64,000 nt of DNA from a virus (IMGVR_UViG_3300020172_001601:64198-128197); one strand, 5' to 3'; numbered from the stretch's first letter, positions 21,100 through 61,022 are shown. Notes: a model not told the origin generated them from the sequence alone. Numbers and translations are program-made.

Positions 21100-21927
21100 A
21101 TGGCAGTCAATCTTGGTCCCCTCGGTCCTTCTGGTCCTCCAGGTTTACTTGGTCCTGTTGGAGTTGATCCAACATGGTATCAACCTTGTCGTGGGGCCGA
21201 AGATGGCGGCTATACAATTCGCATCTGCCCGCCATTGAAGGGCAGAAAGTTTTGCTTGCGAACTCGCAATCATCGAGTTGGCAGCAAGACGTTTCAATGT
21301 CACAAAGAGGTCGTTGACAATAAATGGCAAGGCGAATGTGCCATTTGCGATCAATATAGCAAGTTGTGGAAAGAGTATTTGGGCGATGGCTTTGAAATGC
21401 TGTCTTCTACTCCTATGTCCAAGCCAAGATTCTTCCCAGGAAGTCTCGAAGACTTTAAGCGTGAACTCACCGCAATTAAACCCAACGAACGATATTACTT
21501 CAACATTATTGTTCGTGACGAAGAAGAACGTGGCGTTGTTAAATGGTCCTGCGGCAAGACCATATACACCAAAATCCTTGAAGGCATTGTGGGAAACGAA
21601 AGCAACCCAAATGTGCCTCGGCTTGGTGATATAACCGATCCCAAAAAGGGATATGATCTGCATATCCGAAAGATTGCAAAGAATGGCGGTGGCTCTCACG
21701 GGTGGCCAGATTATTCTGCTTCTCAGTTCTTGCCATCTACGCCGCTGGGTAAACCTAAACAAATCAAATTGTGGTTATCGCAATTGCATGATTTGTCTGC
21801 GTTGCGTATATTGTCTTCTAAGGAGAGCATGGAATCTGCTCTCGAAGACGTGTTTGGGCATCTCGGTGCTGTGAACCCAAAACAAAAATATCGCTCTCTG
21901 ACCGACCCATTTGAACCAGCGTGGTAA
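21100..21927 (+). CDS. hypothetical protein, short collagen-like G-x-y N-terminus; ends KYRSLTDPFEPAW
   Basis: GPLGPSGPPGLLGPVG N-terminus; shared C-terminal motif. Confidence 0.45.
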   Translation: MAVNLGPLGPSGPPGLLGPVGVDPTWYQPCRGAEDGGYTIRICPPLKGRKFCLRTRNHRVGSKTFQCHKEVVDNKWQGECAICDQYSKLWKEYLGDGFEMLSSTPMSKPRFFPGSLEDFKRELTAIKPNERYYFNIIVRDEEERGVVKWSCGKTIYTKILEGIVGNESNPNVPRLGDITDPKKGYDLHIRKIAKNGGGSHGWPDYSASQFLPSTPLGKPKQIKLWLSQLHDLSALRILSSKESMESALEDVFGHLGAVNPKQKYRSLTDPFEPAW

Positions 21928-21937
21928 TAGATAACAT

Positions 21938-22351
21938 ATGCTCCCTAGCAAGCTAAAACTCTTTTTTGATGGGTCATGCGAGCCAAAAAACCCCGGTGGA
22001 ATAGCTGGGTATGGATGGCGTCTAGTTGACATGGATGGCAACGAGGTCGGGACAGACCGTGGTGAGGTCTGCCGGGGTCCGGGAGCAACAAACAATATTG
22101 CAGAATGGGCAGGTGTAACGAATGGATTGCGTTACCTAAAAGAAAAAGAATGGCAAGGCACGCTGGAAATACTCGGCGACTCTCAGCTTGTCATTCGACA
22201 ATTGCTTGGTGAATATAAGGTTCGCAAAGATACCTTAATCCCTTATCATCAAGAGTGCATGGGCCTACTGAAAGACCTTCAGTGGAAGGCAACGTGGATT
22301 CCACGAGAACAAAATGAGGAATGTGACCGGCTTTCTAAGCACGGAGATTGA
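21938..22351 (+). CDS. rnhA: ribonuclease H (RNase HI-like)
   Basis: FFDGSCEPKNPGGIAGYGW matches the RNase H1 TDGSC.GNPG.GG.G motif. Confidence 0.55.
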   Translation: MLPSKLKLFFDGSCEPKNPGGIAGYGWRLVDMDGNEVGTDRGEVCRGPGATNNIAEWAGVTNGLRYLKEKEWQGTLEILGDSQLVIRQLLGEYKVRKDTLIPYHQECMGLLKDLQWKATWIPREQNEECDRLSKHGD

Positions 22352-22409
22352 TCGAGGTATATCCTTCCCATATAATTGAACATTCCAGCTTCAAATATGG
22401 GAGATCAAT

Positions 22410-23657
22410 ATGCAGGTCAATTATCGTGTTTCAGCATCGGGCTATCCTGTTTACCATGTTCAAATGAAAGATGCCTCAGTATGTGAGGCGCATATCGTGT
22501 CTAACTGTGGGTCTGCCCACGAAGACGCTGATTCTTGGGGCGTGGCACACTTCCTGGAGCATATGTGCTTCCAAGGAACTCCCACTAAGAACAAACATCA
22601 AGTAAGCCGTGAACAGTCCTTGATTGGTTCGTACAACGCATACACAAACCAATTCAATACTGTCTATCACTTCGACGCACTTAACGAAGACTTTGAGAAA
22701 GGTTTTGTTCTTCTTAAAGAAGCCGTCTTCGATTCTTGTTATCCTGAAAAGGAATTCGAGAAGGAAAAGAGTGTTATTGTCGAAGAGTGGAGGATGTATG
22801 ACAATTATCCTTCCGAACACTTTTCTGACTATGTGATCGAGAAGTGCTTTGGGGCCGAAGAAGGCCACCCAATCATCGGCACAGAAGAGTCTATTCGGGG
22901 CATGAATCCCGAAAAGCTGCACAGATTCAGAAACAAGTGGTACGGCAAAAACAATATCTTTGTTGTTATTGTTGGTAACTTGGATTTTGAAAAGGTGATG
23001 GAAGTCGTTGACAAAACACTCCCGCCAGCACCAGAAGTAGAAACCAGCCCTGTATGTTTGAACGGCGTCTTTGCAGATCAACCGAAGTACACTTTCGAGA
23101 CTGATCGCTTTGAACAAGCTGCATTCGGCATGGTTCGCAAGTGGTCATCGCCAAAAGAGGTTTACAAGAACCGCTATATTGCGAGCTTCTTTTCCTCTGC
23201 TTTGTCTAAGTATATGTACGAGTATATTCGAGACGACCTGGGCTTGTGCTATGGTGTCTGGAGCAGTCGCTTCCGTCACTTCGATAATTCCAATTTGATG
23301 ATCTCGATGCTCACCAATAATGGATACTTGGAGAAGGCCGAAACTGAACTGGCGAATTTGTTTTCCAAAATTAAATCAGAGGGCTTCCCGAACGAAGTCT
23401 TTGAGATTGCCAAGAAGAGTTTGACTTATAACCAAGTCAAAACGCTTGATAACGTGGGCGGCATCGCTGGCTCAGTGGTTTTTGGTGTGCTTGGCTCGTC
23501 TGACAAAGACTGGTTCTTGACTGAAGGACAAAAGGGCATGGACCCTGTTTGGCTCAAGTCTGTGGCCGCACAACTGACCCAGGAAGACCTGAAGGAATTT
23601 GCTAACACTTGGCTCGGCGACTTCACGAAGTTCGCTATGGTTTCAACCAAGAAGTAA
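22410..23657 (+). CDS. M16 (pitrilysin/insulinase) family zinc peptidase
   Basis: HFLEHMCFQGT contains the inverted zincin HxxEH motif. Confidence 0.65.
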   Translation: MQVNYRVSASGYPVYHVQMKDASVCEAHIVSNCGSAHEDADSWGVAHFLEHMCFQGTPTKNKHQVSREQSLIGSYNAYTNQFNTVYHFDALNEDFEKGFVLLKEAVFDSCYPEKEFEKEKSVIVEEWRMYDNYPSEHFSDYVIEKCFGAEEGHPIIGTEESIRGMNPEKLHRFRNKWYGKNNIFVVIVGNLDFEKVMEVVDKTLPPAPEVETSPVCLNGVFADQPKYTFETDRFEQAAFGMVRKWSSPKEVYKNRYIASFFSSALSKYMYEYIRDDLGLCYGVWSSRFRHFDNSNLMISMLTNNGYLEKAETELANLFSKIKSEGFPNEVFEIAKKSLTYNQVKTLDNVGGIAGSVVFGVLGSSDKDWFLTEGQKGMDPVWLKSVAAQLTQEDLKEFANTWLGDFTKFAMVSTKK

Positions 23658-23661
23658 GTGC

Positions 23662-23690
23662 TTTACAGGTCAGTTGATTTGTGGTACTAT
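23662..23690 (+). promoter_or_regulatory. sigma70-type promoter TTTACA-N17-TGGTACTAT
   Basis: Upstream of ORF 23714. Confidence 0.5.
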
Positions 23691-23713
23691 CAGACGTAAG
23701 GAACGGAGATACC

Positions 23714-24217
23714 ATGAAGTACGTCGAAGCATTCTCAATGGAACACCCGGCTCAATATCGAGGCGGGCCTCTAGGCAATATCGTCCCAGGCGAAAACAGT
23801 TTATTCCTGGGCGGTGGCATCACGGGCTGTTTTGATTGGCAGGCCGAAATGTGTCGCCTATTGAAAGATGTGGACGACCTCGTGGTACTCAATCCTCGGC
23901 GCAAGAACTGGCCGATGAACGACCCTAGCGCCACTGACAAGCAAATCAAGTGGGAATACGAACATCTTCAGACAGCGAACATGATTATGTTCTGGTTCGC
24001 CCCTGAGACGCTGTGTCCCATCACTCTGTTTGAATATGGCAAGTGGTTGGTTCGCAACAAACCACTGTTCGTCGGTTGTGATCCGCAATATAAGCGGCTT
24101 CTCGACGTGCAGGTTCAGACTGCTCTGGAGCGACCCTTCCAGAAAGTTCATACGAGTCTTGAAGAAGTGGCAGATAGCATTCTGCTACATATCGACAGAT
24201 ACACGGCGACTGAGTGA
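23714..24217 (+). CDS. hypothetical Rossmann-like protein (nucleoside 2-deoxyribosyltransferase-like, tentative)
   Basis: SLFLGGGITGCFDWQ glycine-rich motif; ATG 23714 after GGAGA. Confidence 0.3.
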   Translation: MKYVEAFSMEHPAQYRGGPLGNIVPGENSLFLGGGITGCFDWQAEMCRLLKDVDDLVVLNPRRKNWPMNDPSATDKQIKWEYEHLQTANMIMFWFAPETLCPITLFEYGKWLVRNKPLFVGCDPQYKRLLDVQVQTALERPFQKVHTSLEEVADSILLHIDRYTATE

Positions 24218-24427
24218 CCATGCTAGTTACGACTATTGAAGAGTTGTGGCGTGAAGTCATGAAGGACGAAGTGCCGGGTTCAAAAGCCTACTACAAGGCT
24301 GAATACTATATGGGGCAAGCTGTTGCTTTGTATGGAGCCGAAACGCTCATTAAGGCTCATAATGAGCGAGAATTGGAAGCAAAGGTTTTTGATGATCCTT
24401 TTAATTTCTTGGTAAATAGATAAATAT

Positions 24428-24496
24428 GTCTCGGCCTGCGGATCAGGCGTTGGGCCTCCGAAGCCCGAATGAAAGGTTCGACTCCTTTCCGGGATA
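24428..24496 (+). tRNA. tRNA-Arg (CCG)
   Basis: Acceptor GTCTCGG/CCGGGAT; anticodon arm TGGGC-CTCCGAA-GCCCG. Confidence 0.7.
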
Positions 24497-24499
24497 CTT

Positions 24500-24567
24500 G
24501 CCCCTGGTGATGGACACAGCAGATCGTTCTAAGGTCAGCGTTGAGGGTTCGATTCCTTCCGGGGGCG
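24500..24567 (+). tRNA. tRNA, anticodon unresolved (loop region GTTCTAAGG; possibly TCT)
   Basis: Acceptor GCCCCTG/CGGGGGC; T-arm GAGGG-TTCGATT-CCTTC. Confidence 0.5.
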
Positions 24568-24697
24568 CTTGGGTCAAATGCCATGATGGGAGTACATTCT
24601 GTTAAAATGACCCCTCTCATCGAATAATTTGTTGACCCATTTTTTAGAAATTGTGCCTACCATTGGCACTTACTCAAGCTAAGGGTACGGGCGTGTA

Positions 24698-25126
24698 ATG
24701 GCAGTCAAGAAGAGGTTTGTCGAGTGTGAATGCGGCGAGGTATTCATAGAAGGCAAAAATAATCAACTTGAAGGCAATACAGCATTAGGTCCGTGGCGTC
24801 TCAAAGACAATCGCAAGCGTCAAGGCAAGACTACACAGCAGGGCGATATTTTAGCGGCTATATTTGAACGCAGTGTATTCTGCATCAAATGTAAAAATGA
24901 ACTAATGCGAGAAAAACGTCAGTACGAACTGACGCCGCCAGTCACACAGTCTGATGAACCAGTTACATCGTATTCGACTCGTGAGTTTGTGTATCGACAG
25001 GCTCCAAAGCCAACTGCGAGTGACTTGAGCGCTGTGAACATCAGTGTTTCGTCAGAAGGATACAATGCTGGTGAGTTGATCGCCGTAGATCAAGTCATAG
25101 CTGGATATGGTAAACATGGCTCGTAA
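24698..25126 (+). CDS. hypothetical protein
   Basis: 142-aa ORF; 3' end overlaps tRNA-Arg(TCG). Confidence 0.4.
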   Translation: MAVKKRFVECECGEVFIEGKNNQLEGNTALGPWRLKDNRKRQGKTTQQGDILAAIFERSVFCIKCKNELMREKRQYELTPPVTQSDEPVTSYSTREFVYRQAPKPTASDLSAVNISVSSEGYNAGELIAVDQVIAGYGKHGS

Positions 25127-25188
25127 GTGTACCGGAAACACGCTGGTCTTCGGAACCAGAAAAGCAGGTTCGATTCCTGCACGGGCTA
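25118..25188 (+). tRNA. tRNA-Arg (TCG)
   Basis: Acceptor GGCTCGT/ACGGGCT; anticodon arm CTGGT-CTTCGGA-ACCAG. Confidence 0.7.
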
Positions 25189-25191
25189 CTC

Positions 25192-25530
25192 ATGAAATAT
25201 GAAAAGATGGAAAACTTGCGACCCTGGGAAAAGAATCCTAAACAATATCTGTTATGCAGAAAGCATAGCATGGTGTTCTTAGAGGGTTGGGAGTGTCCAG
25301 ATTGTGAGCGGTCCCAGGCTCGAAACATATTCGATCCTTGGGAGCCGAGCGTTGAACAAGATCAACAAGAAGAAAACCACGACCCGCTCATTCTGAGTAT
25401 GGTCGCAGCGGCAGCAGAAGAAAAGATTCCTATGCCGGGCGTTTACAAACTTGAAGTATGTCCTCTACACAACTTACAATATGTGGCGGGGCTAAATGAA
25501 TGCCCGGAATGTAAATGTTGGGCCTCATGA
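25192..25530 (+). CDS. zinc-finger protein (two CxxC pairs)
   Basis: CPDCERS and CPECKC. Confidence 0.4.
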   Translation: MKYEKMENLRPWEKNPKQYLLCRKHSMVFLEGWECPDCERSQARNIFDPWEPSVEQDQQEENHDPLILSMVAAAAEEKIPMPGVYKLEVCPLHNLQYVAGLNECPECKCWAS

Positions 25531-25601
25531 TTCGGTAACTCAATTGGCAGAGTAGCAGACTCTTAATCTGTTTGTTGTGGGTTCGACTCCCACCCGGATC
25601 A
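25529..25601 (+). tRNA. tRNA-Lys (CTT) further copy
   Basis: Acceptor GATTCGG/CCGGATC; anticodon arm GCAGA-CTCTTAA-TCTGT. Confidence 0.75.
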
Positions 25602-25828
25602 CTATGGAAAACTTCAAAGGCATATTGGCTGGAGTTGGAATAAACGACCTACAGATGTTAGGCCGAGCCGTCAGGCCCTTGAACAACAAGGACGTTACTT
25701 GGAATGGCTCTCAATATTCCATCAATGCCTTTTTCGATCAATTTGGATACGAAACGCCGATTCATTTGACGATAAAGAAAAAGAAAAAGTATCGCTCGAT
25801 TGACGAACCGTTCGAGCCGAGTTGGTAA
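25577..25828 (+). CDS. small protein ending KKKKKYRSIDEPFEPSW
   Basis: 83-aa ORF with shared C-terminal motif; 5' region overlaps tRNA-Lys, true start may be downstream. Confidence 0.35.
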   Translation: MGSTPTRITMENFKGILAGVGINDLQMLGRAVRPLNNKDVTWNGSQYSINAFFDQFGYETPIHLTIKKKKKYRSIDEPFEPSW

Positions 25829-25831
25829 TAT

Positions 25832-25904
25832 AGTCGCATAGCTCAGTTGGCAGAGCATCACCCTGATAAGGTGGGGGTCGGTGGTTCAAGTCCACCTGCG
25901 ACTA
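25832..25904 (+). tRNA. tRNA-Ile (GAT) second copy
   Basis: Acceptor AGTCGCA/TGCGACT; anticodon arm TCACC-CTGATAA-GGTGG. Confidence 0.8.
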
Positions 25905-25909
25905 CTTGA

Positions 25910-25938
25910 TTTACAATGCCACCCATTCGTGGTACAAT
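25910..25938 (+). promoter_or_regulatory. sigma70-type promoter TTTACA-N17-TGGTACAAT
   Basis: Upstream of ORF 25965. Confidence 0.5.
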
Positions 25939-25964
25939 AAAGCATTCGTAGCTTTAACCATTGA

Positions 25965-26507
25965 GTGAGTTCGATGAATACTCAGTATTTCTTCATCCAT
26001 GTAATCCTGCTTGGGATTTTGACAGTTGTTGCATTCGTTGCCGCAGTGATTCTAGCAATCATTTGGTATAACGAAAAAGAAGAAAATCCAAGTTGGATGA
26101 TTGGCTCAAGAACAAAATGGGGCATAGCGTCTGTGCTTTGTTTTCTTTTGTTCGGCGGCGGTCTTGGTTGGTGGATTGCTTCTGGCAACGAGCCGTGGCG
26201 TCATGAATATACGTCCCTGCACGATATTAAGGACGTGACGTTCCCTGATGGAACGAAAGTGCAGATGTTTACTTGTGACAATACCCATCACAATGTAACG
26301 TCCATGTTCGGCAAAGTGATTGACGAGAAGGAATGGCAGATTCGCCGAGTTCGGTGGAGTCCGTTATACCTGGGAGTGAGTTGGTCTTGTTGTACAAGGT
26401 GTCAACAAGGCGATCACTATTTTCTTGAACATAAAAAGGGCGAACAACCCTCTATTGAATTGCAGGATAATCTTCCAGCAGAAAAGCTGCCTCCACCGGC
26501 TAAATAA
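25965..26507 (+). CDS. membrane protein
   Basis: Two N-terminal hydrophobic helices. Confidence 0.4.
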   Translation: MSSMNTQYFFIHVILLGILTVVAFVAAVILAIIWYNEKEENPSWMIGSRTKWGIASVLCFLLFGGGLGWWIASGNEPWRHEYTSLHDIKDVTFPDGTKVQMFTCDNTHHNVTSMFGKVIDEKEWQIRRVRWSPLYLGVSWSCCTRCQQGDHYFLEHKKGEQPSIELQDNLPAEKLPPPAK

Positions 26508-26615
26508 GTTGAACCCGGTCTGCTAGTGGTGGGCGTTTTTGCTGTTTCCTGCTCCGGTATCAGTTTGAATGTCTCCCGAAGATTAACAGCGTCAGGAGCA
26601 TTACGGGTTTAAGAA

Positions 26616-26688
26616 GCGGAATGCGCATAATGGCTGTTGCCCCTGATTTCCAATCAGGTCTGAATGGGTTCGATTCCCATATTCCGCA
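26616..26688 (+). tRNA. tRNA-Gly (TCC)
   Basis: Acceptor GCGGAAT/ATTCCGC; anticodon arm CCTGA-TTTCCAA-TCAGG. Confidence 0.75.
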
Positions 26689-26692
26689 CTAT

Positions 26693-26764
26693 GCGGGTGT
26701 AACTCAATGGTAGAGTACCTGCCTTCCAAGCAGGTTGTTGTGGGTTCGAGTCCCATCGCCCGCT
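26693..26764 (+). tRNA. tRNA-Gly (TCC) second copy
   Basis: Acceptor GCGGGTG/CGCCCGC; anticodon arm CCTGC-CTTCCAA-GCAGG. Confidence 0.8.
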
Positions 26765-26847
26765 CTAATCACCCTCCATGCCTCTTTTTGTGATTGCAAG
26801 TAGCAACGCTACCGATTACAATTACGCACACTTTGGAGGGTTTTTTC

Positions 26848-27231
26848 ATGAAACAAGAAACTGAAGATAAGATAGTTGCAGAGTTCCCGGAATACTTTCC
26901 TGATTTCCGTGGCGATCCGACCAAGACTTGCCTTGCGTGGGGCCTAGCTGTTGGCGAAGGCTGGAGTAACTTGTTCCACCAGTTGTGTCGTGATATAAAA
27001 GCAACCAACCCACCCGAAGGTTTCAAGTTCGAGCAGGTCAAGGAAAAGTTCGGCGGTTTGCGAGTGTACGCTTCTGGCGGCACGAGCGAGATCGGCAAAT
27101 TGATTGATGCCGCCGAAAACGATTCCTATACGATATGCGAAAATTGTGGAACTAAAGACGGCGTGAAGTCCGAGGGTGCTTGGATTACTACCTTGTGTGG
27201 CAATTGTCGTGGAACGATCAAAGCTGTATGA
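26848..27231 (+). CDS. hypothetical protein
   Basis: GGAGGG RBS, ATG 26848; Cys-rich C-terminus. Confidence 0.45.
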   Translation: MKQETEDKIVAEFPEYFPDFRGDPTKTCLAWGLAVGEGWSNLFHQLCRDIKATNPPEGFKFEQVKEKFGGLRVYASGGTSEIGKLIDAAENDSYTICENCGTKDGVKSEGAWITTLCGNCRGTIKAV

Positions 27232-27237
27232 GTAAAT

Positions 27238-27310
27238 GCCGGTGTAACTCAGTTGGTAGAGTAGCAGTTTTGTAAACTGCCTGTCGTGGGTTCGACTCCC
27301 TCCACCGGCT
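27238..27310 (+). tRNA. tRNA-Thr (TGT) second copy
   Basis: Acceptor GCCGGTG/CACCGGC; anticodon arm GCAGT-TTTGTAA-ACTGC. Confidence 0.75.
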
Positions 27311-27314
27311 CTTT

Positions 27315-28374: not shown

Positions 28375-28414
28375 TCCTTGTTGCTACATCTAGTTATGAA
28401 AGTGGGGACGATAA

Positions 28415-28807: not shown

Positions 28808-28850
28808 AATACTGAGTCAGTAGTCCATACATAAGGAGTAGTGCTTCAAT

Positions 28851-29189
28851 ATGAGTGAAACAATAACGCTCCCGGAGCCAAAAGAGAAAGTAGATAACAA
28901 GACTGATAATAAGACTAAGCGTCAACCGCCATATAACGTCATTCTGATGAATGACGACGATCATACGGTCGAATATGTCGTGACGTTGTGCCAAAAAATA
29001 TTTGGCTTTCCAATAGAGAAGGGTCTATTGAAAGCCAAAGAGGTTCACGAACAGGGTCGGTCTATTTTGTGGACTGGCGCTCTCGAATTGGCCGAGTTGA
29101 AGCAAGAACAAATTCACGCTGTTGGCAAAGACCCGCAGATTAAACGCTGCAAGGGTAGTATGACTGCGGTACTGGAACCGGCAGCGTAA
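28851..29189 (+). CDS. clpS: ATP-dependent Clp protease adaptor ClpS
   Basis: YNVILMNDDDHTVEYVVTLCQKIFGF...EVHEQG aligns with the ClpS core [24 protein letters not shown]...AVHYQG. Confidence 0.8.
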   Translation: MSETITLPEPKEKVDNKTDNKTKRQPPYNVILMNDDDHTVEYVVTLCQKIFGFPIEKGLLKAKEVHEQGRSILWTGALELAELKQEQIHAVGKDPQIKRCKGSMTAVLEPAA

Positions 29190-29199
29190 CAGGAGAACA

Positions 29200-29919: not shown

Positions 29920-30189
29920 ATGGCAAGAATCAGTAAAATCATTTGGATCGAAGATGATGATGGGACGATTTCTTTGGACACAATTCCTGGCATGACTCGT
30001 CAGGATATATTCCAAGCATCCCTTATCATGACCGATAAAGGCCGCATTCTGAAAAATCGTACTGGTCCGGCCAATCAAATGATTCCGTCATTCGAGCTTG
30101 TGAAGCAAGCGGTCAAGCCGCCCAAGAAAAAAACCAAGACCAAATATCGTTCGATATACGATTCGATGGATGTGAAAGCTGAATTATGA
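29920..30189 (+). CDS. small protein with C-terminal KKKTKTKYRSIYDS (partial shared motif)
   Basis: 89-aa ORF. Confidence 0.35.
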   Translation: MARISKIIWIEDDDGTISLDTIPGMTRQDIFQASLIMTDKGRILKNRTGPANQMIPSFELVKQAVKPPKKKTKTKYRSIYDSMDVKAEL

Positions 30190-40134: not shown

Positions 40135-41880
40135 GTGTCTGGTCAAATAACTCGAAAGGCAATGGTGATTACGATGGCTAACAAGAATCTATTCAAGTCT
40201 GAGCGTGGCTCAATTGTTCCAGCAACGGACGTTCTCAACGAAGCTGGTGGTGTTGCATACAAGATGAGTGCAAAGCAGGCCCTTGCGCAGTACGTCTGCA
40301 CTGGCTGCTTGAACGGCACCTACTACACGTCTGCCAAGACGCAACTGGACACTGTTCGTCAGTTGCTTACTGAAGTCGAGCCTGAGTTCCTTGGTCAGTT
40401 GGCTGTGTACTCGCACGAAAAGTCCTTCATGAAGGACTTGCCTGCTCTGTTGGTCGCATTCCTCGCATCCGACAAGGGTGCTGGTGGTGGTCCAACTACG
40501 GCTACGCAGGAGCGAAAGCTGAAGACGCTCCGTAAGGTTTTCCATCGTGTCATCGACAGCGGCAACATGCTGCGCAACTTTGTGCAGATGATCCGTTCGG
40601 CAGCATTCGGTCGCAAGTCATTCGGTGAAGTGCCTCGCAAGCTGATTCGTGACTGGTTCGAGAATAAGTCTCCGGCTGGTATTTTCTTCCAGAGCATTGG
40701 CAATAGCCCATCCCTGGCAGATATTATCAAGCTGACCAAGCCGAAGCCGAACACGCCTGAAAAGGCGGCTGTATTGGCGTATCTGCTTGGTGCAGAAACC
40801 GTTGACGGCGAAGATGGCAAGTTGCTTGTTCGCAAGTATCTTGACCGTGCCGACAAGCAGGTGAAGGTTGCGTACTCGCAGCCTTACGACAACCTGCCGG
40901 AAATCATTCGTGAATACGAAGCGTGGAAGAAGGACAAGAGCCTCCCGGTTCCTGCCATCAACTTCCGCTTCCTGGACAACGAGAAGCTGTCAACTGCTCA
41001 GTGGGCAGATATTGCTTCCAAGGCAAACTGGCTTACGACCCTGAAGAACCTCAACGCATATGCCGACCACGGCGTATTCGGCGTTGAAGGCATGACTGAC
41101 ATGATCGCCGCACGTCTCAGCAATGCTGATGAAGTGCGTAAGGTTCGGGTATTCCCATACCAGATCATGATGGCCTACCTCGCAACCGATACGGAAGCGA
41201 AAGTACCGCCCAAGGTCCGTAACGCCATTCAGGATGCTATGGAAGTGGCATGTGAAAACGTACCAGCGTTGGGAAAGGTTAAGTTCTTCCCGGACGTGTC
41301 TGGTTCGATGAGGAGCGCTGCTATTACGGGCGACCGTGGTTCGGCGACTTCTAAGGTTCGGTGTGTTGACGTGGCTGCTCTGTTCGCAGTGGCAATGCTT
41401 CGTCGCAACCCGGAAGCGGAAGTAATTCCGTTCGAGCAGACGGTTCGTGAACTTACACTGAACCCTCGTGACAGCATCATGACCAACGCTACTCGCCTCG
41501 CAGCGATTGGCGGTGGTGGAACCAACTGTTCGGCCCCACTTGCTTTGCTCAACGCAAAGAAGGATTGGTCGGCAGACGTGTTGGTGTATATTTCGGACTA
41601 TGAGTCCTGGGTGGATAGCACTGGCTACCACGCTGGTAATGGCAACGGTACAGCACTGCTCAATGAGTGGGTGAAGTACAAGAGCCATAACAAGAATGCC
41701 AAGCTGATTTGCATCGACTTGACCCCTCGTGCAAACCATCAGGTCAAGGAACGTGATGATATTCTCCAGGTCGGTGGATTCTCGGACAACGTATTCAACG
41801 TGATCGCAAGGTTCGTTGAAGGCGGCTGGTCGAAGGATTTTTGGGTCAAGGAGATTGAAAGCGTTCAACTGGATACTTAA
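40135..41880 (+). CDS. rsr: Ro60 ortholog (Rsr): TROVE domain plus vWA domain with MIDAS
   Basis: NEAGGVAY..LAQYVCTGCLNGTYY matches Ro60 N..GG...L..F..G..GTYY; VRVFPYQIMMAY; MIDAS DVSGSM; GGGGTNCSAPL. Confidence 0.85.
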   Translation: MSGQITRKAMVITMANKNLFKSERGSIVPATDVLNEAGGVAYKMSAKQALAQYVCTGCLNGTYYTSAKTQLDTVRQLLTEVEPEFLGQLAVYSHEKSFMKDLPALLVAFLASDKGAGGGPTTATQERKLKTLRKVFHRVIDSGNMLRNFVQMIRSAAFGRKSFGEVPRKLIRDWFENKSPAGIFFQSIGNSPSLADIIKLTKPKPNTPEKAAVLAYLLGAETVDGEDGKLLVRKYLDRADKQVKVAYSQPYDNLPEIIREYEAWKKDKSLPVPAINFRFLDNEKLSTAQWADIASKANWLTTLKNLNAYADHGVFGVEGMTDMIAARLSNADEVRKVRVFPYQIMMAYLATDTEAKVPPKVRNAIQDAMEVACENVPALGKVKFFPDVSGSMRSAAITGDRGSATSKVRCVDVAALFAVAMLRRNPEAEVIPFEQTVRELTLNPRDSIMTNATRLAAIGGGGTNCSAPLALLNAKKDWSADVLVYISDYESWVDSTGYHAGNGNGTALLNEWVKYKSHNKNAKLICIDLTPRANHQVKERDDILQVGGFSDNVFNVIARFVEGGWSKDFWVKEIESVQLDT

Positions 41881-53233: not shown

Positions 53234-53268
53234 CTCGTATATCTTCATCCCTAATCAGAGAGGTTTGC

Positions 53269-54510: not shown

Positions 54511-55001
54511 TGAAAGTAATATCCGGTGGACAAAACGGTGCGGACCAAGCCGGTATTCGAGCGGCGAAGGCGTGCGGTTTTGAAACTGGAGGATGGTTGC
54601 CTCAAGGCTGTAAAACGCTTGATGGGCCACGACCAGACCTATTGACAGAATACGGCATGAAAGAGCATAGTAGTTCTCTCTACCCGCCCAGGACTGAGGC
54701 GAACGTCAAGGACAGTTGTGGCACCATAAGGTTTGCCAGGACATTCTCTTCAGCCGGGGAAAAGTGTACTCTCCGTGCGATCAAGTGGTTCAATCGTCCG
54801 TATTTGAACGTGGATATAAATAAGCCGATAGATAAACAAGAAGTATTGTCTTGGCTTAAAGAGCATGATATAAAGACTCTCAACATTGCTGGGAACTCTG
54901 AGGAAACCGCTCCCGGTATTGGTGATTTTGTCTTTAAGTATCTCATGGGTGTCTTTTCCGACTTAAAAAACGGGCTTGACAACATGACCCATACGGAGTA
55001 A
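54492..55001 (+). CDS. SLOG-superfamily, putative molybdenum-cofactor-carrier-like (LOG-fold) protein
   Basis: MKVISGGQNGADQAGIRAAKACGFETGGWLPQG...PPRTEANV matches ISGGQTG.D.A...A...G...GGW.P.G...RTE.NV. Confidence 0.6.
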   Translation: MEAARMMKVISGGQNGADQAGIRAAKACGFETGGWLPQGCKTLDGPRPDLLTEYGMKEHSSSLYPPRTEANVKDSCGTIRFARTFSSAGEKCTLRAIKWFNRPYLNVDINKPIDKQEVLSWLKEHDIKTLNIAGNSEETAPGIGDFVFKYLMGVFSDLKNGLDNMTHTE

Positions 55002-55006
55002 AACTG

Positions 55007-55324
55007 ATGTTGGACAAATTGAGAAGTCTGTTTACGACCCCTATCCAAAAGGAAGAACCGATGGCTGTGACTGCAACGACTGCAACGACCCCGACCCAAA
55101 CTCAGTCTCAAAAGACTTGCCCCGTTCAAGGAGCAGTTGAGCAATTGAGCGCTACATCCGAAACTTGTGAAAACACCGGATGCTGCGAGAACACTCTTTG
55201 CCAGGAGTCCGTCCGAGAGCGGGCTTATCTGCTGTGGGAGAAGGCTGGCTACCCAATCGGCGATGGCGTGGATTTCTGGATCACCGCCGAGCAAGAACTG
55301 TTGGCCGATGCCACTGCCGAGTAA
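55007..55324 (+). CDS. hypothetical protein
   Basis: 105-aa ORF. Confidence 0.35.
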   Translation: MLDKLRSLFTTPIQKEEPMAVTATTATTPTQTQSQKTCPVQGAVEQLSATSETCENTGCCENTLCQESVRERAYLLWEKAGYPIGDGVDFWITAEQELLADATAE

Positions 55325-55388
55325 ACCGGCCTGCCTTGATTCTTGGGGCGGGGTTTGGCGAGAGCTAAACCCTGCCTTTTTTTTTGAT

Positions 55389-55418
55389 TTTACAGAATGG
55401 TAGGCTCCGTGGTATAAT
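55389..55418 (+). promoter_or_regulatory. sigma70-type promoter TTTACA-N18-TGGTATAAT
   Basis: Conserved architecture. Confidence 0.45.
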
Positions 55419-55685
55419 CCACTGAAAATCTATGAAAGGCGTTCATGGAAAATATAGCCTATTTTTTCGCTGATATTGAGGTTCACAATGCTCGAATCAT
55501 GGCAATGGCTGTTTTTCTTCAATTTCCCGTGTCTTTTTTTGAATTTACTCGGCATGTACTTGTCGGTGTTTTCAATAAACGACGAGAAATTGGCCAAAAG
55601 ATGCTACTGGATAAATTCGGCGTGCATGTGCATGTCCATTGCGAACATACTGTCAAATTCTTTTTCCGTGGTCGCTACATAGGGC

Positions 55686-56033
55686 ATGGGCAAGAATGAT
55701 ACTTTGGTTGAAGGACTTCACTACTACATTGACGCAAAGGGCAAGTGGGTATTTACCTCTTACTTTTTGCTCAATCGTGGGTATTGCTGTCACAACGGTT
55801 GTCTTAACTGTCCATATGGTGCTAACATGAAAATCGAACCGGGTCAATATATCTGGAGATCGAAAGATACAGACCTTCCAGTAACAGTTGTTGAGTCCAT
55901 TGGCAAAGGCTCGGACGGGCGGTCCTATGTAAAAATCGCCGGTAGCACTACAGCCGTTCCAGCCGATGAACTCATAAAGGTTCCGAATGTGGCACAAGAA
56001 TCACGAAGACCCCAACCGAAGAGACTCTTTTGA
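55686..56033 (+). CDS. Cys-rich hypothetical protein
   Basis: GYCCHNGCLNCPYG. Confidence 0.35.
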   Translation: MGKNDTLVEGLHYYIDAKGKWVFTSYFLLNRGYCCHNGCLNCPYGANMKIEPGQYIWRSKDTDLPVTVVESIGKGSDGRSYVKIAGSTTAVPADELIKVPNVAQESRRPQPKRLF

Positions 56034-56154
56034 CGACTTGGTGATTGGGGGTTTACTTATTGTTACCCTTATCCTGTTGGGCGTTATGTCTTTTTATATG
56101 ATGATCTCGTTCATGACAATGACTCGTATTCATCCCATGTAGGCTATATACGGT

Positions 56155-56568
56155 ATGAAAAGGATATGCACATTCAACGAATTCATGGTCTTGAAGGAAG
56201 ATGATCGACGAACTGGTGGAAAGACTGGTTTGTATCCTCTTGGATATGGCGGCATTGGTCTATATCCAGATGCGGACATGATGACTCAATCTGCTGATGC
56301 TGTATTTTATCTGTCTATTGACAATAGATTGTTCAGCAATGGAGATGCAGCGCCTTTTAGCATTGCCCATTTGCCCGGACATAAACAATATGACAATCCA
56401 AATTCGGGCGAGAGTGAGCCATTTGACATTCGCCATCTCCCTGGTGATGCTGTTCCTCCGAAAGATAGCCCGTTGGCGGGTAAGTCCATACCGTTCAAGA
56501 GTTTTGTCAAGTTGGTAGAAAAACCAAAAGAAATTTCCCCGCCAGATTCCCCGAACCTTCCCAGGTAG
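56155..56568 (+). CDS. hypothetical protein
   Basis: 137-aa ORF. Confidence 0.35.
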   Translation: MKRICTFNEFMVLKEDDRRTGGKTGLYPLGYGGIGLYPDADMMTQSADAVFYLSIDNRLFSNGDAAPFSIAHLPGHKQYDNPNSGESEPFDIRHLPGDAVPPKDSPLAGKSIPFKSFVKLVEKPKEISPPDSPNLPR

Positions 56569-56581
56569 TTAGGGTCTTGTC

Positions 56582-56953
56582 ATGAAGCGTAATCCGATTG
56601 CCAACTACTGTAAGCAACAAGTAGAGGGCTGGGACAAGCTGCCAGAGTTCATGAATTTCGCCCCTCCTGGCGAAGAGAACTTTTGTTGCAGTTTTCTTCG
56701 TCGTGCTGACGGTATTCAAATGTTGGCGTCGGTGAAAGACCTGAATGCCCTTAATACCATCCATGTCTCTTTGGCTCCTATTCGAGATTGCCGCAAAGAC
56801 TGGACAGATGACGAACACAGCGGACACATATTCGATGTGGCCTTTGAAGTGGTTGAATCCTTTTTCCCCGGTCGAAGGTTTGCACGGCAACCTGATGATC
56901 CCCGCAGACCACAAGTGAAGCATTACTTCGCCATCCTGGAGGCCAATGAATGA
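56582..56953 (+). CDS. hypothetical protein
   Basis: 123-aa ORF. Confidence 0.35.
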   Translation: MKRNPIANYCKQQVEGWDKLPEFMNFAPPGEENFCCSFLRRADGIQMLASVKDLNALNTIHVSLAPIRDCRKDWTDDEHSGHIFDVAFEVVESFFPGRRFARQPDDPRRPQVKHYFAILEANE

Positions 56954-58599
56954 ACGAATTCCATATTTCGGAAAAAGACAACAACACCACGTTCGTCACA
57001 ACGGCGATTGATTATCCGAACGCTCTGCCACATATCGGCACAGCATTCGAGAAGATCGGCGCTGACGTATACGCCCGGTTCCGTCGTTTCCAGGGTCGTG
57101 ATGTATATTTCACGATGGGCAACGACGAGAACACTGTGAAGGTTCTCAAAGCAGCAAAAGCCGTAGACAAGCATCCTCAGCCATATGTCGATGAAATGGC
57201 CGATGCGTTTAAGGCTGTGTGGAAAGAACTCAACATTTCCTTTGACGACTTCATTCAGACCAGTGAAGATCGACACCTGTTGGGTGTTCAGAGATTCCTG
57301 CGTGCTGTGAATTCCGCTGGTTATATTGAGAAGCGACCATACAAGGCTTTGTATTGTGAGGGCTGTGAAGAGTTCAAGAGTCCAAATAGCTTGGACTATG
57401 CAAAGCGATGCCCGAACCATACTGGCACACCTTTGGTGGAACGGGAGGAAGAGAATTACTTCTTTCTTCTGTCTGCATTCAAGCAGCGTGTGGCTGATTT
57501 GATTTATCCCACTCCATTCCTCACTGCCTTCCTGAGTATTGAGCCTGAGTCTCGCTACAACGAAGTCACTAAGTTCATCGACACGGAACTGACGGATATT
57601 TCCATCAGTCGCCGTAATGAAGGCTGGGGCATTCCAATTCCGTGGGACGACACCCAAGCCACCTATGTCTGGTTCGACGCTTTGTTGAACTATTTGACTG
57701 TGATTGGTTTTGGGAACGATTGGGAGAAATTCCAAAAGTATTGGCCTGCTGAAGTTCACTTCATTGGCAAGGACATTACTCGGTTCCACTGTGCATTGTT
57801 CCCGGCAATGTGCATGGCCTATAACGAAGGATGTGATAAGCTGGGTGAGCCTCAATACAAGTTGAAGGCTTTTCCTCAGCGTGTATTTGCACACGGCTTC
57901 GTCAATCAAAAGAAGGGAAGTCAGGTTGTCAAGATTTCCAAGAGCGGAGATTCAATCCGACCTGGAGAACTGATTGAGCAGTTCGGGTCGGATGCGTACA
58001 GATACTATTTCTTGTCGAAGTTCAACTACGATACGGACGGTGAATATAGCCTGGACCACTTTAGAGAAGTGTATAACGCCGACCTCGCCAACTCCTTGGG
58101 CAACCTTGTGAGTCGCACCGTAGGAATGTCGTTGCAGTATTTCGACGGGAAGATTCCACCGATGGTCGCAGAAGGCCAGCCTTGGCTTGATGAGAAGACG
58201 GCGTTGGAATACGAGCAATTTATTGTTGATTGTTGTTCGTATCGGCACGCTATTGAATGGACGTGGAAGATCATCTTCAACGCCAACAAGTTGATCGAGA
58301 ATTCAAAGCCGTGGGAATTGGTTAAGTTGCCCGGCAACACCTGTGGTCAGGTGTTGGGCCAACTTGTGGGCAGTCTGAGAATCATCAGTCTGTTGATCCG
58401 ACCGTTCACGCCAGCGGTGGCCGAGAAGATTTACACGACGTTTCAGTGGGCTGAAGGATGGAATGAAGTTGATTGGGAGTTCGTTAAGAAGTTGGCGACG
58501 AACAACTTCCTGGGACTCGAAAACGGTATTGCCATCAACAGGAATGTTTTAGATAATGCTGGAAAGTTTCCGGTGCTTTTTCCGAGAGTCAAATCATGA
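56950..58599 (+). CDS. metS: methionyl-tRNA synthetase
   Basis: PNALPHIGTAFEKIGADVYARFRRFQG (HIGH region), CPNHTGTP zinc knuckle, KISKSGD (KMSKS); 549 aa. Confidence 0.85.
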   Translation: MNEFHISEKDNNTTFVTTAIDYPNALPHIGTAFEKIGADVYARFRRFQGRDVYFTMGNDENTVKVLKAAKAVDKHPQPYVDEMADAFKAVWKELNISFDDFIQTSEDRHLLGVQRFLRAVNSAGYIEKRPYKALYCEGCEEFKSPNSLDYAKRCPNHTGTPLVEREEENYFFLLSAFKQRVADLIYPTPFLTAFLSIEPESRYNEVTKFIDTELTDISISRRNEGWGIPIPWDDTQATYVWFDALLNYLTVIGFGNDWEKFQKYWPAEVHFIGKDITRFHCALFPAMCMAYNEGCDKLGEPQYKLKAFPQRVFAHGFVNQKKGSQVVKISKSGDSIRPGELIEQFGSDAYRYYFLSKFNYDTDGEYSLDHFREVYNADLANSLGNLVSRTVGMSLQYFDGKIPPMVAEGQPWLDEKTALEYEQFIVDCCSYRHAIEWTWKIIFNANKLIENSKPWELVKLPGNTCGQVLGQLVGSLRIISLLIRPFTPAVAEKIYTTFQWAEGWNEVDWEFVKKLATNNFLGLENGIAINRNVLDNAGKFPVLFPRVKS

Positions 58600-58781
58600 G
58601 TAGGTTGTCGTTGGTTCTCGGATTAGTCATTGGGTTTTGGGCGGGCCATTGGTTCGCCCGAACTTCATGGCATCAAAGATGGTACGCTCAGTGGTATGAG
58701 GGGTTTCTCAACGGCGCTGTTGTTGCAGCAATACTGGTAGGCATCTACTTTATTGTCATAAGAAGCCGTAATCAATCTTAG
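58596..58781 (+). CDS. small membrane protein
   Basis: Two hydrophobic helices. Confidence 0.35.
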   Translation: MSRLSLVLGLVIGFWAGHWFARTSWHQRWYAQWYEGFLNGAVVAAILVGIYFIVIRSRNQS

Positions 58782-58790
58782 TGGTATAAT
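58781..58790 (+). promoter_or_regulatory. extended -10 element GTGGTATAAT (weak -35)
   Basis: Same extended -10 as other promoters; upstream of 58799. Confidence 0.35.
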
Positions 58791-58798
58791 TAAACACT

Positions 58799-59563
58799 AT
58801 GAGAATCGCATCCGAATTCCACGACTACTACGATGTAGGCATGGCTGAGGGCCAGGATCAATCCTTGGTCTATCAGCGATACCCTATCGTAGAGGAACGG
58901 GAGCATTACCCGTTCGGTTCAATGTATTCAGGCTACAGCCTGAATGCTCGATCTCTTTACGTCCGCTCATATACCATTGGGTTCTGTGGCAAAATGTACA
59001 AGGTATTGGAACTCAATACCTTGGAGAACGGTTCACGCAACGACAAGGAAGGTCGATCTACTCGTAAGTGGGCATACAACCTGCGGGATGTTGACACTTA
59101 CATCCGTCACCATTATCCTAAGCAATACGCTGACTATTTAGAAAAGAATTGGCGGCGTGGCAATGGCTGGTCTGGCGAACAGCGTCAGCACGCCTTTGAT
59201 TCATTCTTCAATGGTCGTAATCAGTGGGATCGCAAGCCTACCGAAGAGGAATTGAACAAGAATGAAGAGTGGCGTCGAAGCTGGTTCGAGAAGCATCGCA
59301 GTCCTATATTCGTAGCTGAGTATTCTACTGTCGCCAACAAATACGGCGGTAGGATCACATATAACGCCCAACTGAAGCCATTTGAGTTTTATCGGGTGTT
59401 CGATCCTTATCAGGCTTATCAGGAAGTCGCCATGTGGCTTTCTAATCAAGCTGTTCCGATCAAGCCGATTCCAGAGCTTGATGATGTGACAATGGCTGAG
59501 AGCAAAGGTTTCAATAAGTTTAGTTTTAGAAAAGACCCCAGCAGCAAAAAGCGAAAGCACTAG
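58799..59563 (+). CDS. hypothetical protein
   Basis: 254-aa ORF. Confidence 0.45.
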   Translation: MRIASEFHDYYDVGMAEGQDQSLVYQRYPIVEEREHYPFGSMYSGYSLNARSLYVRSYTIGFCGKMYKVLELNTLENGSRNDKEGRSTRKWAYNLRDVDTYIRHHYPKQYADYLEKNWRRGNGWSGEQRQHAFDSFFNGRNQWDRKPTEEELNKNEEWRRSWFEKHRSPIFVAEYSTVANKYGGRITYNAQLKPFEFYRVFDPYQAYQEVAMWLSNQAVPIKPIPELDDVTMAESKGFNKFSFRKDPSSKKRKH

Positions 59564-59639
59564 GGGTTGAACGGTGAGTCCAATCGGTAAGGCGCAAGTC
59601 GCTCCGATGTAACTGAGGGTTCGATTCCCTCCAACTCCA
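59563..59639 (+). tRNA. tRNA-like gene with G3:U70 acceptor, non-canonical core
   Basis: Acceptor GGGGTTG/CAACTCC, T-arm GAGGG-TTCGATT-CCCTC; internal nested hairpins ATCGG..CCGAT. Confidence 0.45.
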
Positions 59640-59641
59640 CT

Positions 59642-59926
59642 ATGAATGAAAAACCAGCAGATGGCGTCCGAGGCTTTTTTCTTTACAGTCCGTTTTCGCA
59701 TCGGCACTTCTTCCGTGTTTACGGAGAAGTCGATCCGACGACGGGCCATAAGACGTTCACTGATTACAAGGTGTGCGCCGAAGATATAGAAGTCACTATT
59801 GAAGCAAATGGGTTGTCCCTGTATGAAGGGGATGAAGATAAAAACCGTCTCGATTGGTCCAGTCGTGTCTTAGGAAGAGATGGCAAAGACCACCTGGATG
59901 TGCGAACACCAAAAAAGGAACAGTAA
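59642..59926 (+). CDS. hypothetical protein
   Basis: 94-aa ORF. Confidence 0.35.
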   Translation: MNEKPADGVRGFFLYSPFSHRHFFRVYGEVDPTTGHKTFTDYKVCAEDIEVTIEANGLSLYEGDEDKNRLDWSSRVLGRDGKDHLDVRTPKKEQ

Positions 59927-60414
59927 TGGGACTTGCATTGCGTGTAGATGGAAATACTTATGCTGAGTGGGCATATTCTGGATATGGTCAATTCAGGAAG
60001 AAGATTGCCGCTCAGGTCGGAATTGATCTCCATCAAATGGAAGGATTTCACAATGTTGATAAGTCAATATTGTCCATTCAGGGTTGGGAAGCCTACCGAG
60101 AAGCAATTGAAACCGATCTGTCCCAGGAGAAGATTAGCTGGGACACAGTGAATGATCCCATCAAGATTTTGCTGAATCATTCTGATTGTGAGGGAGAAAT
60201 CCCGGCTGAGGATTGCAAAGTCTTGGCTGACCGGCTTGAGCAAATCATTAAGGAATGGCCTGAGCGGGTTAAATTGAAGACCGATCCTTTCTGGCAGGAT
60301 CGAGGCTATCCAGCAGAATTAGACCTGGATGCTTACGACACAACACAGGCAAAGGGTCTTATTGCGGGTTTGCGAGAAGCTGCTAAAATTGGCAAGCCCG
60401 TAGAATTTTCCTGA
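59926..60414 (+). CDS. hypothetical protein
   Basis: AAAGGAACAGTA-ATG start overlapping previous stop. Confidence 0.4.
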   Translation: MGLALRVDGNTYAEWAYSGYGQFRKKIAAQVGIDLHQMEGFHNVDKSILSIQGWEAYREAIETDLSQEKISWDTVNDPIKILLNHSDCEGEIPAEDCKVLADRLEQIIKEWPERVKLKTDPFWQDRGYPAELDLDAYDTTQAKGLIAGLREAAKIGKPVEFS

Positions 60415-60467
60415 TACGATCACTCCTTTATTATGTCTGAAAGATATAATGAACCAAGGAGTAAATC

Positions 60468-60683
60468 ATGGACAAAGACTACGCAAAAGCTGTTTCCAAC
60501 TTCGAGCAAGCGGGAGCGCACCTGGGAAACTTCGCCACATTATTGTTCACATATCATAAATCGCTATGTGAATCCGGCTTCCAGAGAGACGAAGCATTGG
60601 AATTGGTGAGAGAACTCCAGACGACCTTATTTGCACAGGCTTTTAATTTCGGCCCACAACCGAGTCAAGATGATGACGACTAA
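60468..60683 (+). CDS. small hypothetical protein
   Basis: 71-aa ORF. Confidence 0.3.
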   Translation: MDKDYAKAVSNFEQAGAHLGNFATLLFTYHKSLCESGFQRDEALELVRELQTTLFAQAFNFGPQPSQDDDD

Positions 60684-60764
60684 AGTAATCATTGTTAAGC
60701 CAGAAAGATTTGCAGGAACGGTCGCTGTTTATAGGCGACCGTTTTTCGTTACCGGAGCAATACA

Positions 60765-61022
60765 ATGAGTGACTGTGAAGTAGCCCAATTCAAAAGAATA
60801 AGCATTCCTTTGATGAGGAGGATATATCCTCAGCTTATTGCCAACCAGATATGCAGTGTTCAGCCATTGGCTGGCCCAACTGGTTTAGTGCATTATTTGC
60901 GATATAAATATTCTGAGAACAAGGGTGGCATCATCAACACTGATGGCTGGACCATCAAACCCAAGAAGAAAAAGATTTGGCGTGACATCAACGATCCGTG
61001 GGAGCCTTCTAGCAATGGCTAA
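60765..61022 (+). CDS. small protein ending KKKKIWRDINDPWEPSSNG
   Basis: 85-aa ORF with shared C-terminal motif. Confidence 0.4.
   Translation: MSDCEVAQFKRISIPLMRRIYPQLIANQICSVQPLAGPTGLVHYLRYKYSENKGGIINTDGWTIKPKKKKIWRDINDPWEPSSNG

Follow-up and report, generated by a model that had tools for sequence, protein, structure and literature searches.

A C-terminal peptide shared by a gp32-type single-stranded DNA-binding protein and unrelated mini-proteins of huge phages

Why do proteins with unrelated bodies end in the same short peptide, and what would such a peptide bind? The question is raised by a 64,000-nucleotide (nt) stretch of viral DNA (IMGVR_UViG_3300020172_001601:64198-128197, the whole of which is called the window here), part of a huge-phage genome, in which a peptide of about 15 residues forms the tail of a gp32-type single-strand DNA-binding protein (SSB) and is found again on many tiny proteins. 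An earlier note on this DNA had described four open reading frames (ORFs), at 21100–21927, 25577–25828, 29920–30189 and 60765–61022, that share a lysine-rich ending, and had proposed a short linear motif appended to different proteins. All four are present with the endings described, the start of the second being in need of correction, and a search for the motif beyond them added three further copies in the window (25192–25530, 61015–61269 and 61761–62270). The core motif consists of a run of K/R followed by [YFW]-R-x-[IL]-x-[DE]-[PD]-[WF]-[ED], with a final P-x-W-stop present or not; written as a 20-mer, an example of the tail is TIKKKKKYRSIDEPFEPSW. The carriers in the window are as follows.

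21100–21927, + strand: gp32-type SSB of 275 aa, the presumed founder carrier (Pfam PF08804, E = 1.8e-12; PHROG SSB families)
21880–21924, + strand: the SSB tail, KQKYRSLTDPFEPAW, followed by the stop codon and conserved in 15 SSBs
25192–25530, + strand: double Zn-ribbon-like protein of 112 aa with an internal ARNIFDPWEPS at 25318–25350, conserved in the relatives L031 and L035
25604–25828, + strand: mini-protein of 74 aa, orf25577 family, predicted to be disordered, with the tail KKKKKYRSIDEPFEPSW at 25775–25825; identical to the database protein P0024
29920–30189, + strand: protein of 89 aa with a variant tail, KKKTKTKYRSIYDSMDVKAEL, at 30124–30186; homologues in the relatives L031, L033 and L035
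60765–61022, + strand: mini-protein of 85 aa, a piece of major capsid protein (MCP; Pfam Gp23 positions 1–51, E = 5e-15) with the tail KKKKIWRDINDPWEPSSNG at 60963–61019
61015–61269, + strand: protein of 84 aa ending in KKEKVRPRSILEDWEVTQDSG, with the tail at 61204–61266; a gene call in L048 that fits the broad form of the motif
61761–62270, + strand: protein of 169 aa with a hydrophobic N-terminus, a long charged middle and the short form KPQRIWRYIDEE (62232–62267); a weaker member

The motif and its place on the SSB

The string [DE]P[FW]EP occurs four times in the six-frame translation of the window against 0.06 expected, and none of 2000 shuffles gave four occurrences. Three of the sites (21904, 25805 and 60993) lie at most 10 codons from a stop codon and the fourth (25333) is internal, and all copies fall within genes on the + strand. 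The broad pattern R-[SDNKT]-[ILV]-x-[DE]-[PDES]-[WFM]-[ED] was found six times, with 0.03 expected from shuffled translations of the six frames; it brings in the proteins at 29920–30189 and 61015–61269, and a short form closes the protein at 61761–62270.

The copies are alike as peptides and differ as DNA. Different codons are used in 222 of 454 same-residue comparisons among 11 tails, which come from 7 sequences; for the invariant Arg, most copies have CGN and one has AGA. Because the copies differ in their synonymous codons, selection acts at the level of the peptide and the motif is not a DNA repeat. The codon differences likewise speak against a recent recombination-borne duplication, which the earlier note had considered. 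That note had named nucleotide identity reaching outside the motif as the observation that would overturn its proposal; on comparison no such identity was found between the copies, and neither this identity nor conservation at the DNA level, the marks of a DNA repeat or a mobile-element end, is present. In an Rfam scan of the window, tRNAs were the only RNA families found, so that no intron or other structured RNA lies under the motif sites.

The position of the motif varies. It stands at C-termini, at one N-terminus (in a protein of a relative, L031:8839-9132) and in the interior of proteins (25192–25530; L058), and Lys- or Pro-rich linkers often precede it. In each carrier family the tail is the best-conserved part, and the motif segments are left unstructured by AlphaFold.

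The carrier at 21100–21927, which the earlier note had counted among the unrelated small proteins, ends as described there but is a 275-aa SSB of the gp32 family. Its PF08804 match is above the cut-off, and the Zn-binding residues H58, C67, C80 and C83 do not vary across the alignment. AlphaFold2 (AF2) predicts the core with a predicted local distance difference test (pLDDT) value >90 and leaves tail residues 253–275 flexible (pLDDT ~56–58), without secondary structure. All 15 SSB orthologues, at 44–86% identity, keep the tail with the consensus K-x-K-[YFW]-R-x-[IL]-x-x-[PAT]-[FW]-x-P-x-W-stop, in which R265, P273 and W275 are invariant and F271 is nearly so. These SSBs have variable N-termini, some of only ~12 residues, and they lack both a conserved basic domain at the N-terminus and an acidic domain at the C-terminus.

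More distant gp32 homologues (n = 78, from IMG/VR, 27–39% identity) carry another tip at the same place, LADDDFMKELEGM, which is acidic. This tip, ..[LM]ADD[DE]F[LM]KEL.G[MIL]-stop, is strongly conserved in most SSBs of loci L062–L139 and was seen on the SSB only, within 10 kb on either side; from its conservation, it looks like a defined partner-binding peptide of these related uncultured phages.

The motif itself was sought well outside the window. No copy was found in 1.19 Mb flanking the 78 distant gp32 genes or in the 0.52 Mb surrounding 80 MCP genes. LR756511, a complete genome of 595 kb in which the SSB is acidic-tailed, contains zero strict copies and one spurious broad copy; as the SSB there lacks the tail and the genome lacks the copies, the SSB tail and the other copies co-occur, and do so in one clade. 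Cellular genomes gave three matches only, all in short ORFs without a lysine run, which we read as chance. A scan of JGI metagenomes gave three true matches, scans of IMG/VR with the ..[DE]P[FW]EPxW form returned a near-identical contig (L002) together with noise in GC-rich non-coding frames and nothing else, and a profile built from the tandem-repeated tail gave two matches only. When 12 kb of the window were compared with GenBank phages by megablast, no match emerged. In addition, 8 kb beyond the window were read from ENA ERZ25042327 NODE_1 (390,142 nt), which is identical over the shared 12 kb, and no further carrier was found there.

The smaller carriers of the window fall into several families. 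The longest ORF at 25577–25828 begins at a GTG inside a tRNA-Lys gene (25529–25602), and the real gene is 25604–25828: for the database protein P0024, the start codon is the ATG at 25604, which comes two bases past the tRNA, the next tRNA follows from 25832, and genes and tRNAs around this carrier are packed nearly without spacers. Members of its family (P0019–P0031, 74–112 aa) have FRGILAG, ITIP..PNFTWNGSQYS and the tail in common, the invariant columns being those of the tail. The 74-aa carrier is predicted to be disordered (AF2 mean pLDDT 60; predicted template modelling score, pTM, 0.14), AF2 gave no docked conformation of the tail for this carrier or, in its own prediction, for the SSB, and searches of the family against Pfam and PHROG gave no match. 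A suspected origin of this family from the N-terminus of YeaH/DUF444 was not supported (hhalign probability 0.1%). In the double Zn-ribbon-like protein, the motif and its flank, RNIFD[PA]WEPSVEQD, are kept in the homologues of L031 and L035 (94% and 55% identity). The homologues of the protein at 29920–30189 in L031, L033 and L035 keep KTKTKYRSI[YF]D[PS]xD..L-stop, a divergent form without the aromatic residue. The ..DPWEVTQD.. string of the protein at 61015–61269 recurs at the N-terminus of L031:8839-9132, the motif in this L031 protein being an N-terminal extension that is absent from its homologues. The protein at 61761–62270 is probably membrane-anchored, judging by eye from its hydrophobic N-terminal stretch; a similar N-terminus is found in a protein of a 532-kb phage that ends in KYRSIDEPWEKK (L143), and another protein ends in ..KKKKHRSIDDE-stop (L058).

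Capsid, PrkA and SSB pieces as carriers

The 85-aa protein at 60765–61022 is 78% identical to residues 68–118 of the intact 491-aa MCP of LR756511. It aligns with residues 94–133 of T4 gp23, over the Gol region, which we take to span about residues 93–122 and thus to be covered by this carrier. The Gol peptide of T4 gp23 triggers the Lit protease. The Gol region is described as gp23's most conserved part and as binding domains II and III of EF-Tu (PMC3014915). Unlike Gol in T4, the piece in the window is a separate, tailed gene in a translation-related cluster, the likeness being one of sequence. As a free-standing gene it lies amid tRNA, synthetase and PTH2 genes, and because of this setting its product may act on translation factors.

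Pieces of this kind extend well beyond one gene. A profile search over 1.84 billion representative proteins yielded a diverse family of 72–116 aa composed of an MCP middle piece (T4 gp23 residues 255–325; Pfam Gp23 positions ~131–206), a Lys run, [YF]RSI[DT]D[PD]W[ED] and 0–7 further residues. The MCP pieces found as carriers cover residues 68–118, 254–330, 331–381, 407–459 and 449–476, and the other parents are PrkA_C (positions 116–218) and the SSB core (residues 120–166). Every mini-gene has a start codon to itself, and conservation of the families extends over clusters of <50% identity.

The 532-kb IMG/VR contig 3300049215_000771 contains at least 10 carriers. They include MCP pieces 270–321, 331–381, 421–453 and 449–476, one piece of PrkA_C and one of the SSB core, the latter with the motif close to its N-terminus, a protein that carries the motif internally, a protein with a hydrophobic N-terminus, which is probably membrane-anchored, and others of no recognised origin. 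An intact 478-aa MCP is encoded in this genome and also in a second contig that has two mini-genes; since the intact protein coexists with the pieces, the latter are extra genes and not a broken capsid gene. In the relative L035, a PrkA_C piece (Pfam positions 116–218, E 6e-15) that ends in KYRRIDDPWEQAW directly follows the SSB gene; its Pfam PrkA_C match is clear, although BLASTP gave no significant similarity between the piece and E. coli YeaG.

Two side observations concern further genomes. P0046 (208 aa), a further rearranged capsid-fragment protein, which came from the search of representative proteins, combines a DUF2934 segment, a piece of the MCP C-terminus and a piece of the MCP middle in permuted order, and it has no tail. 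The contig L055 (IMGVR_UViG_3300016662_000096) encodes a 168-aa carrier ending in AQYRSIDDPWEPVEYFAED and a 411-aa ORF that is putatively TnpB/IS605 OrfB-like, as judged by eye; a contig of the same metagenome has a conserved capsid gene (L187).

A proposed common receptor and its alternatives

The motif is real, selected as a peptide and specific to one clade; it co-occurs with the SSB tail and lies in flexible segments at varied positions. A conserved peptide on variable or disordered bodies, in a flexible context, with linkers, at varied positions and on many carriers fits a short linear docking motif, and in this respect the idea of the earlier note is borne out. Furthermore, the tail lies exactly where gp32 relatives keep their acidic tip, which suggests that in this clade a new peptide, recognised by a receptor, has been substituted for the SSB tip. 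We infer that the tail binds a protein and that this partner is common to the carriers, the tail being most likely an address tag for one shared partner. Our favoured reading, to which we give a probability of roughly 0.5, is that the peptide is a portable docking motif for one common receptor, founded on the SSB tip and reused on mini-proteins that act as adaptors or competitors.

According to this reading, the founding copy would be the flexible C-terminal tip of the gp32-type SSB, taking the place of the acidic tip in this clade. The peptide would then have been copied onto at least 12 other proteins, including disordered mini-proteins, pieces of the MCP, PrkA and the SSB core, a Zn-ribbon protein and apparently membrane-anchored proteins. 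All carriers would bind one phage-encoded receptor, either a partner of the SSB or the SSB core itself, and the mini-proteins would be adaptors that bring the target of their fragment to the receptor, or competitors that displace the SSB. T4 gp32's acidic C-terminal domain contacts other replication and recombination proteins. The same domain regulates DNA binding (PMC8549804). More tentatively, the carriers may form a modular adaptor system, in which pieces of the MCP (including Gol), the SSB or PrkA are joined through a lysine linker to a common tail that plugs into the hub used by the SSB.

The genes that bear on the choice of partner, and on the alternatives below, are listed here.

20757–21089, + strand: protein like the C-terminal domain of the RNA polymerase alpha subunit (alpha-CTD), with the helix-hairpin-helix arrangement (HhH)2, directly upstream of the SSB gene (PF03118, E 8e-10)
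21938–22351, + strand: RNase HI-type nuclease, directly downstream of the SSB gene (Pfam RVT_3/RNase_H; PHROG RNase H)
22410–23657: M16 peptidase, two genes downstream of the SSB gene
28851–29189: ClpS homologue
19463–19732: BubE/DUF6527 protein
1558–2481: Prok-JAB protein
62385–62999: HNH endonuclease

The gene order BubE, one further gene, alpha-CTD-like protein, SSB and RNase H is kept in four relatives. The alpha-CTD-like gene remains next to the SSB gene in L001, L031, L033 and L035, RNase H is syntenic with the SSB in all relatives, and BubE is encoded upstream of the SSB, two to three genes away, in each of them. By this context, the alpha-CTD-like protein and RNase H are candidate partners of the tail.

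Several points weigh against docking to a common receptor. No binding partner was found for the tail, and no receptor gene is evident in the window, with its module of tRNA, aminoacyl-tRNA synthetase and PTH2 genes. Known SSB tips are acidic (DDDIPF in E. coli; ..DLDDLLNDL in T4; ..ADDDFMKELEGM in the relatives), whereas the tail KQKYRSLTDPFEPAW, with three basic and two acidic side chains, is not acidic overall, and the mini-protein tails contain 4–6 Lys. The docking reading gives no reason why capsid fragments should share a partner with the SSB, and for the mini-gene P0035 (L050), a capsid fragment, no second carrier was seen at distances of up to 20 kb.

Among the alternatives, the one that fares best is itself a form of docking, with the SSB as the receptor. 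The tail would be a self-association tag that attaches to the core of an adjacent SSB molecule, so that carriers would be tethered to SSB-coated single-stranded DNA (ssDNA) or would cap the filaments; we consider this unlikely. It would suit SSBs that have no conserved basic N-terminal and acidic C-terminal domains, and the acidic and aromatic second half of the tail could mimic ssDNA, as has been proposed for T7 gp2.5 and for E. coli SSB tails. K-x-K-Y-R-S in addition resembles the LAST motif of T4 gp32 (PMC8549804), whose sequence we take to be KRKST. However, AF2 leaves the tail undocked on the core of the same molecule, and self-association does not account for capsid and PrkA fragments being sent to ssDNA.

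Slightly less likely, in our view, is a degron or a processing site for the M16 peptidase or for a Clp/Lon-type protease, through which the carriers would be given a timed lifetime or would have their tail cleaved off. The M16 gene near the SSB is also present in L031 and L033, and ClpS is encoded nearby in L031, L033 and L035. A basic run, then Arg and a hydrophobic residue, resembles recognition of the type used by M16 enzymes and the mitochondrial processing peptidase, and rapid turnover would be sensible for many tiny carriers. Yet an abundant, stoichiometric SSB would be an odd substrate, and the tail is kept in all orthologues; around the putative cleavage site the residues vary, as does the Ser. 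ClpS reads N-termini. The tail is also unlike C-terminal ClpX tags of the LAA or MuA type, which are recognised through a free C-terminus ending in ..LAA or ..RRKKAI: the endings here are W, SSNG, EV, QDSG and others, and internal and N-terminal copies exist. The suggestion in the earlier note that the peptide docks to ClpS or ClpX is weakened by these same facts. For docking to the ubiquitin-like (Ubl) machinery, raised alongside it, no specific support emerged, the sole link being the presence of the BubE and JAB genes.

A tail that binds the sliding clamp, like the SLDFL[FY] tails of T4 gp43, gp55 and gp33 or like proliferating-cell-nuclear-antigen-interacting protein (PIP) boxes, was also among the suggestions of the earlier note and appears improbable. 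In the T4 genome, gp43 ends in ..KASLDFLFG-stop and gp55 in SPSLDFLYEAND, two unrelated proteins with a common tail, and the spacing S-[LI]-D-x-x-aromatic is matched by RS-I-D-[DE]-P-[WF]. Basic residues also precede the RB69 tail, KKASLFDMFDF. However, the middle residues are hydrophobic in T4 and acidic or Pro here; no carrier has a bacterial beta-clamp motif, QL[SD]LF, or a PIP box, Qxx[ILM]xx[FY][FY], the motif having neither a Q nor paired aromatic or Leu residues; and clamp motifs are not known from SSBs. The sister genome speaks against the suggestion as well, as tblastn with T4 gp43, gp44, gp45, gp55 and gp62 against the complete LR756511 gave nothing significant. LR756511 encodes a capsid protein like that of T4 and an SSB like gp32; T4-type replication proteins and gp55 were not detected in it. 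With no T4-type gp43, gp45, gp44 or gp62 to be found, its replication machinery must, on the evidence of its sequence, be of another type.

Little credence is likewise given to a targeting signal that loads the capsid, or another compartment made by the phage, for co-injection or localisation. Many unrelated carriers per genome have the look of an address tag, capsid-protein pieces are among them, and [IL]-x-[DE] recalls the L/I-x-E site of the T4 prohead protease. Against this, the known T4 capsid-targeting sequences are N-terminal signals of ~10 residues with L/I-x-E cleavage, whereas most copies of the motif are C-terminal; at the position where cleavage would occur, Asp is found as often as Glu; and carriers that are apparently membrane-anchored (L143; 61761–62270) are hard to reconcile with packaging. 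Finally, one might think of chance similarity, of a DNA repeat or the end of a mobile element, or of broken genes read through into their introns, as capsid-gene pieces lie near the HNH endonuclease gene and two capsid pieces in adjacent ORFs of L054 are ordered as in the capsid gene. These readings are refuted by the shuffles, the differing codons, the Rfam result, the coexisting intact MCP and the separately started, widely conserved mini-gene families.

Genomic setting and relation to known systems

The carriers are embedded in a translation-related module, in which nearly all genes lie on the + strand. The remaining features are as follows.

8603–37036, plus 6128–6218, 6719–6850 and 18044–18116, + strand: tRNA genes (ARAGORN, Rfam)
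40135–41880: Ro60/TROVE-vWA protein
L048:14306-14764, just past the window: RF-1-domain protein

ARAGORN predicts 49 tRNA genes and Rfam adds three more, all on the + strand. Several are long, at 83–93 nt, with one Rfam hit of 132 nt; the long tRNAs may contain introns or long variable arms. Two tRNAs (11467–11541 and 11639–11711) were given a two-base, unreadable anticodon by ARAGORN. The window also encodes four aminoacyl-tRNA synthetase-like genes, PTH2 and SPFH besides the Ro60/TROVE, ClpS, M16 peptidase, BubE and JAB genes. Ro60 is usually paired with Y RNA; none was found in the Rfam gathering scan of the window, in which no search aimed at Y RNA was made. BubE/DUF6527 proteins have been shown to be Ser-His peptidases belonging to the ubiquitination-like (Bub) operons of bacteria (bioRxiv 10.1101/2024.11.21.623953), and BubE and JAB may remove host Ubl conjugates as a counter-defence.

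Three known systems invite comparison. SSB tips, such as the A domain of T4 gp32, ..DDDIPF of E. coli SSB and the end of T7 gp2.5, are likewise conserved, short and flexible peptides at the extreme C-terminus, and the tail, a conserved terminal peptide on a flexible linker, holds the same position; its last part, D-P-F-E-P-x-W-COOH, is aromatic and acidic as theirs is. In T7, the type of acidic, aromatic-ended tail found on gp2.5 is also present on the gp4 helicase. The tail of the present clade differs from these tips in that a Lys/Arg run comes first, the sequence is unrelated, and the peptide is copied onto at least 12 proteins, also at N-terminal and internal positions. The clamp tails of T4 and RB69 (gp43 ..SLDFLFG; gp55 ..SLDFLYEAND; gp33) resemble it as one C-terminal peptide on unrelated, partly small proteins, and differ from it in that here the middle is acidic or Pro and an SSB is a carrier.

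The third comparison is with the microProteins of plants and animals, which are small, derive from one interaction domain of a larger protein and regulate through non-productive complexes. Similarly, several of the carriers are excised pieces with their own start codons, and the parent MCP gene is intact; a small ORF derived from a domain of an intact larger protein is what the MCP pieces are, and for the PrkA and SSB pieces the homology to the parent is found. Unlike microProteins, the pieces have a common extra tail. No phage precedent for microProteins was found in the literature searched, and a literature search on the motif strings, jumbo-phage gp32 tails and capsid-derived microproteins revealed no precedent either. 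SSB tips as interaction hubs, and docking tails common to unrelated phage proteins (the T4 clamp; T7 gp2.5 and gp4), are already known. New are the motif's sequence, the exchange of the gp32 tip, the spread to at least 12 proteins and, above all, the tagged mini-proteins made of MCP, SSB and PrkA pieces.

The tip of a gp32-type SSB can thus be swapped whole within a lineage, the new tip then spreading to many proteins. The commonly tagged pieces of MCP, SSB and PrkA, conserved in distant relatives, constitute a class of phage mini-proteins that is normally dismissed in annotation. The peptide also opens the biology of huge phages that have not been cultured to testing, as a synthetic 15–20-mer should pull down the receptor. 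If the modular adaptor system holds, the phage could bring, hold or remove its own proteins, or those of the host, of competitors or of defence sensors, at one place, which would be a viral, genetically encoded counterpart of the logic of bifunctional adaptors (similar to proteolysis-targeting chimeras, PROTACs) or of decoys. If the mini-proteins are adaptors or decoys, they would represent a new kind of viral system and would bear on how capsid proteins and SSBs, which are frequent triggers of bacterial immune sensors, are handled during infection.

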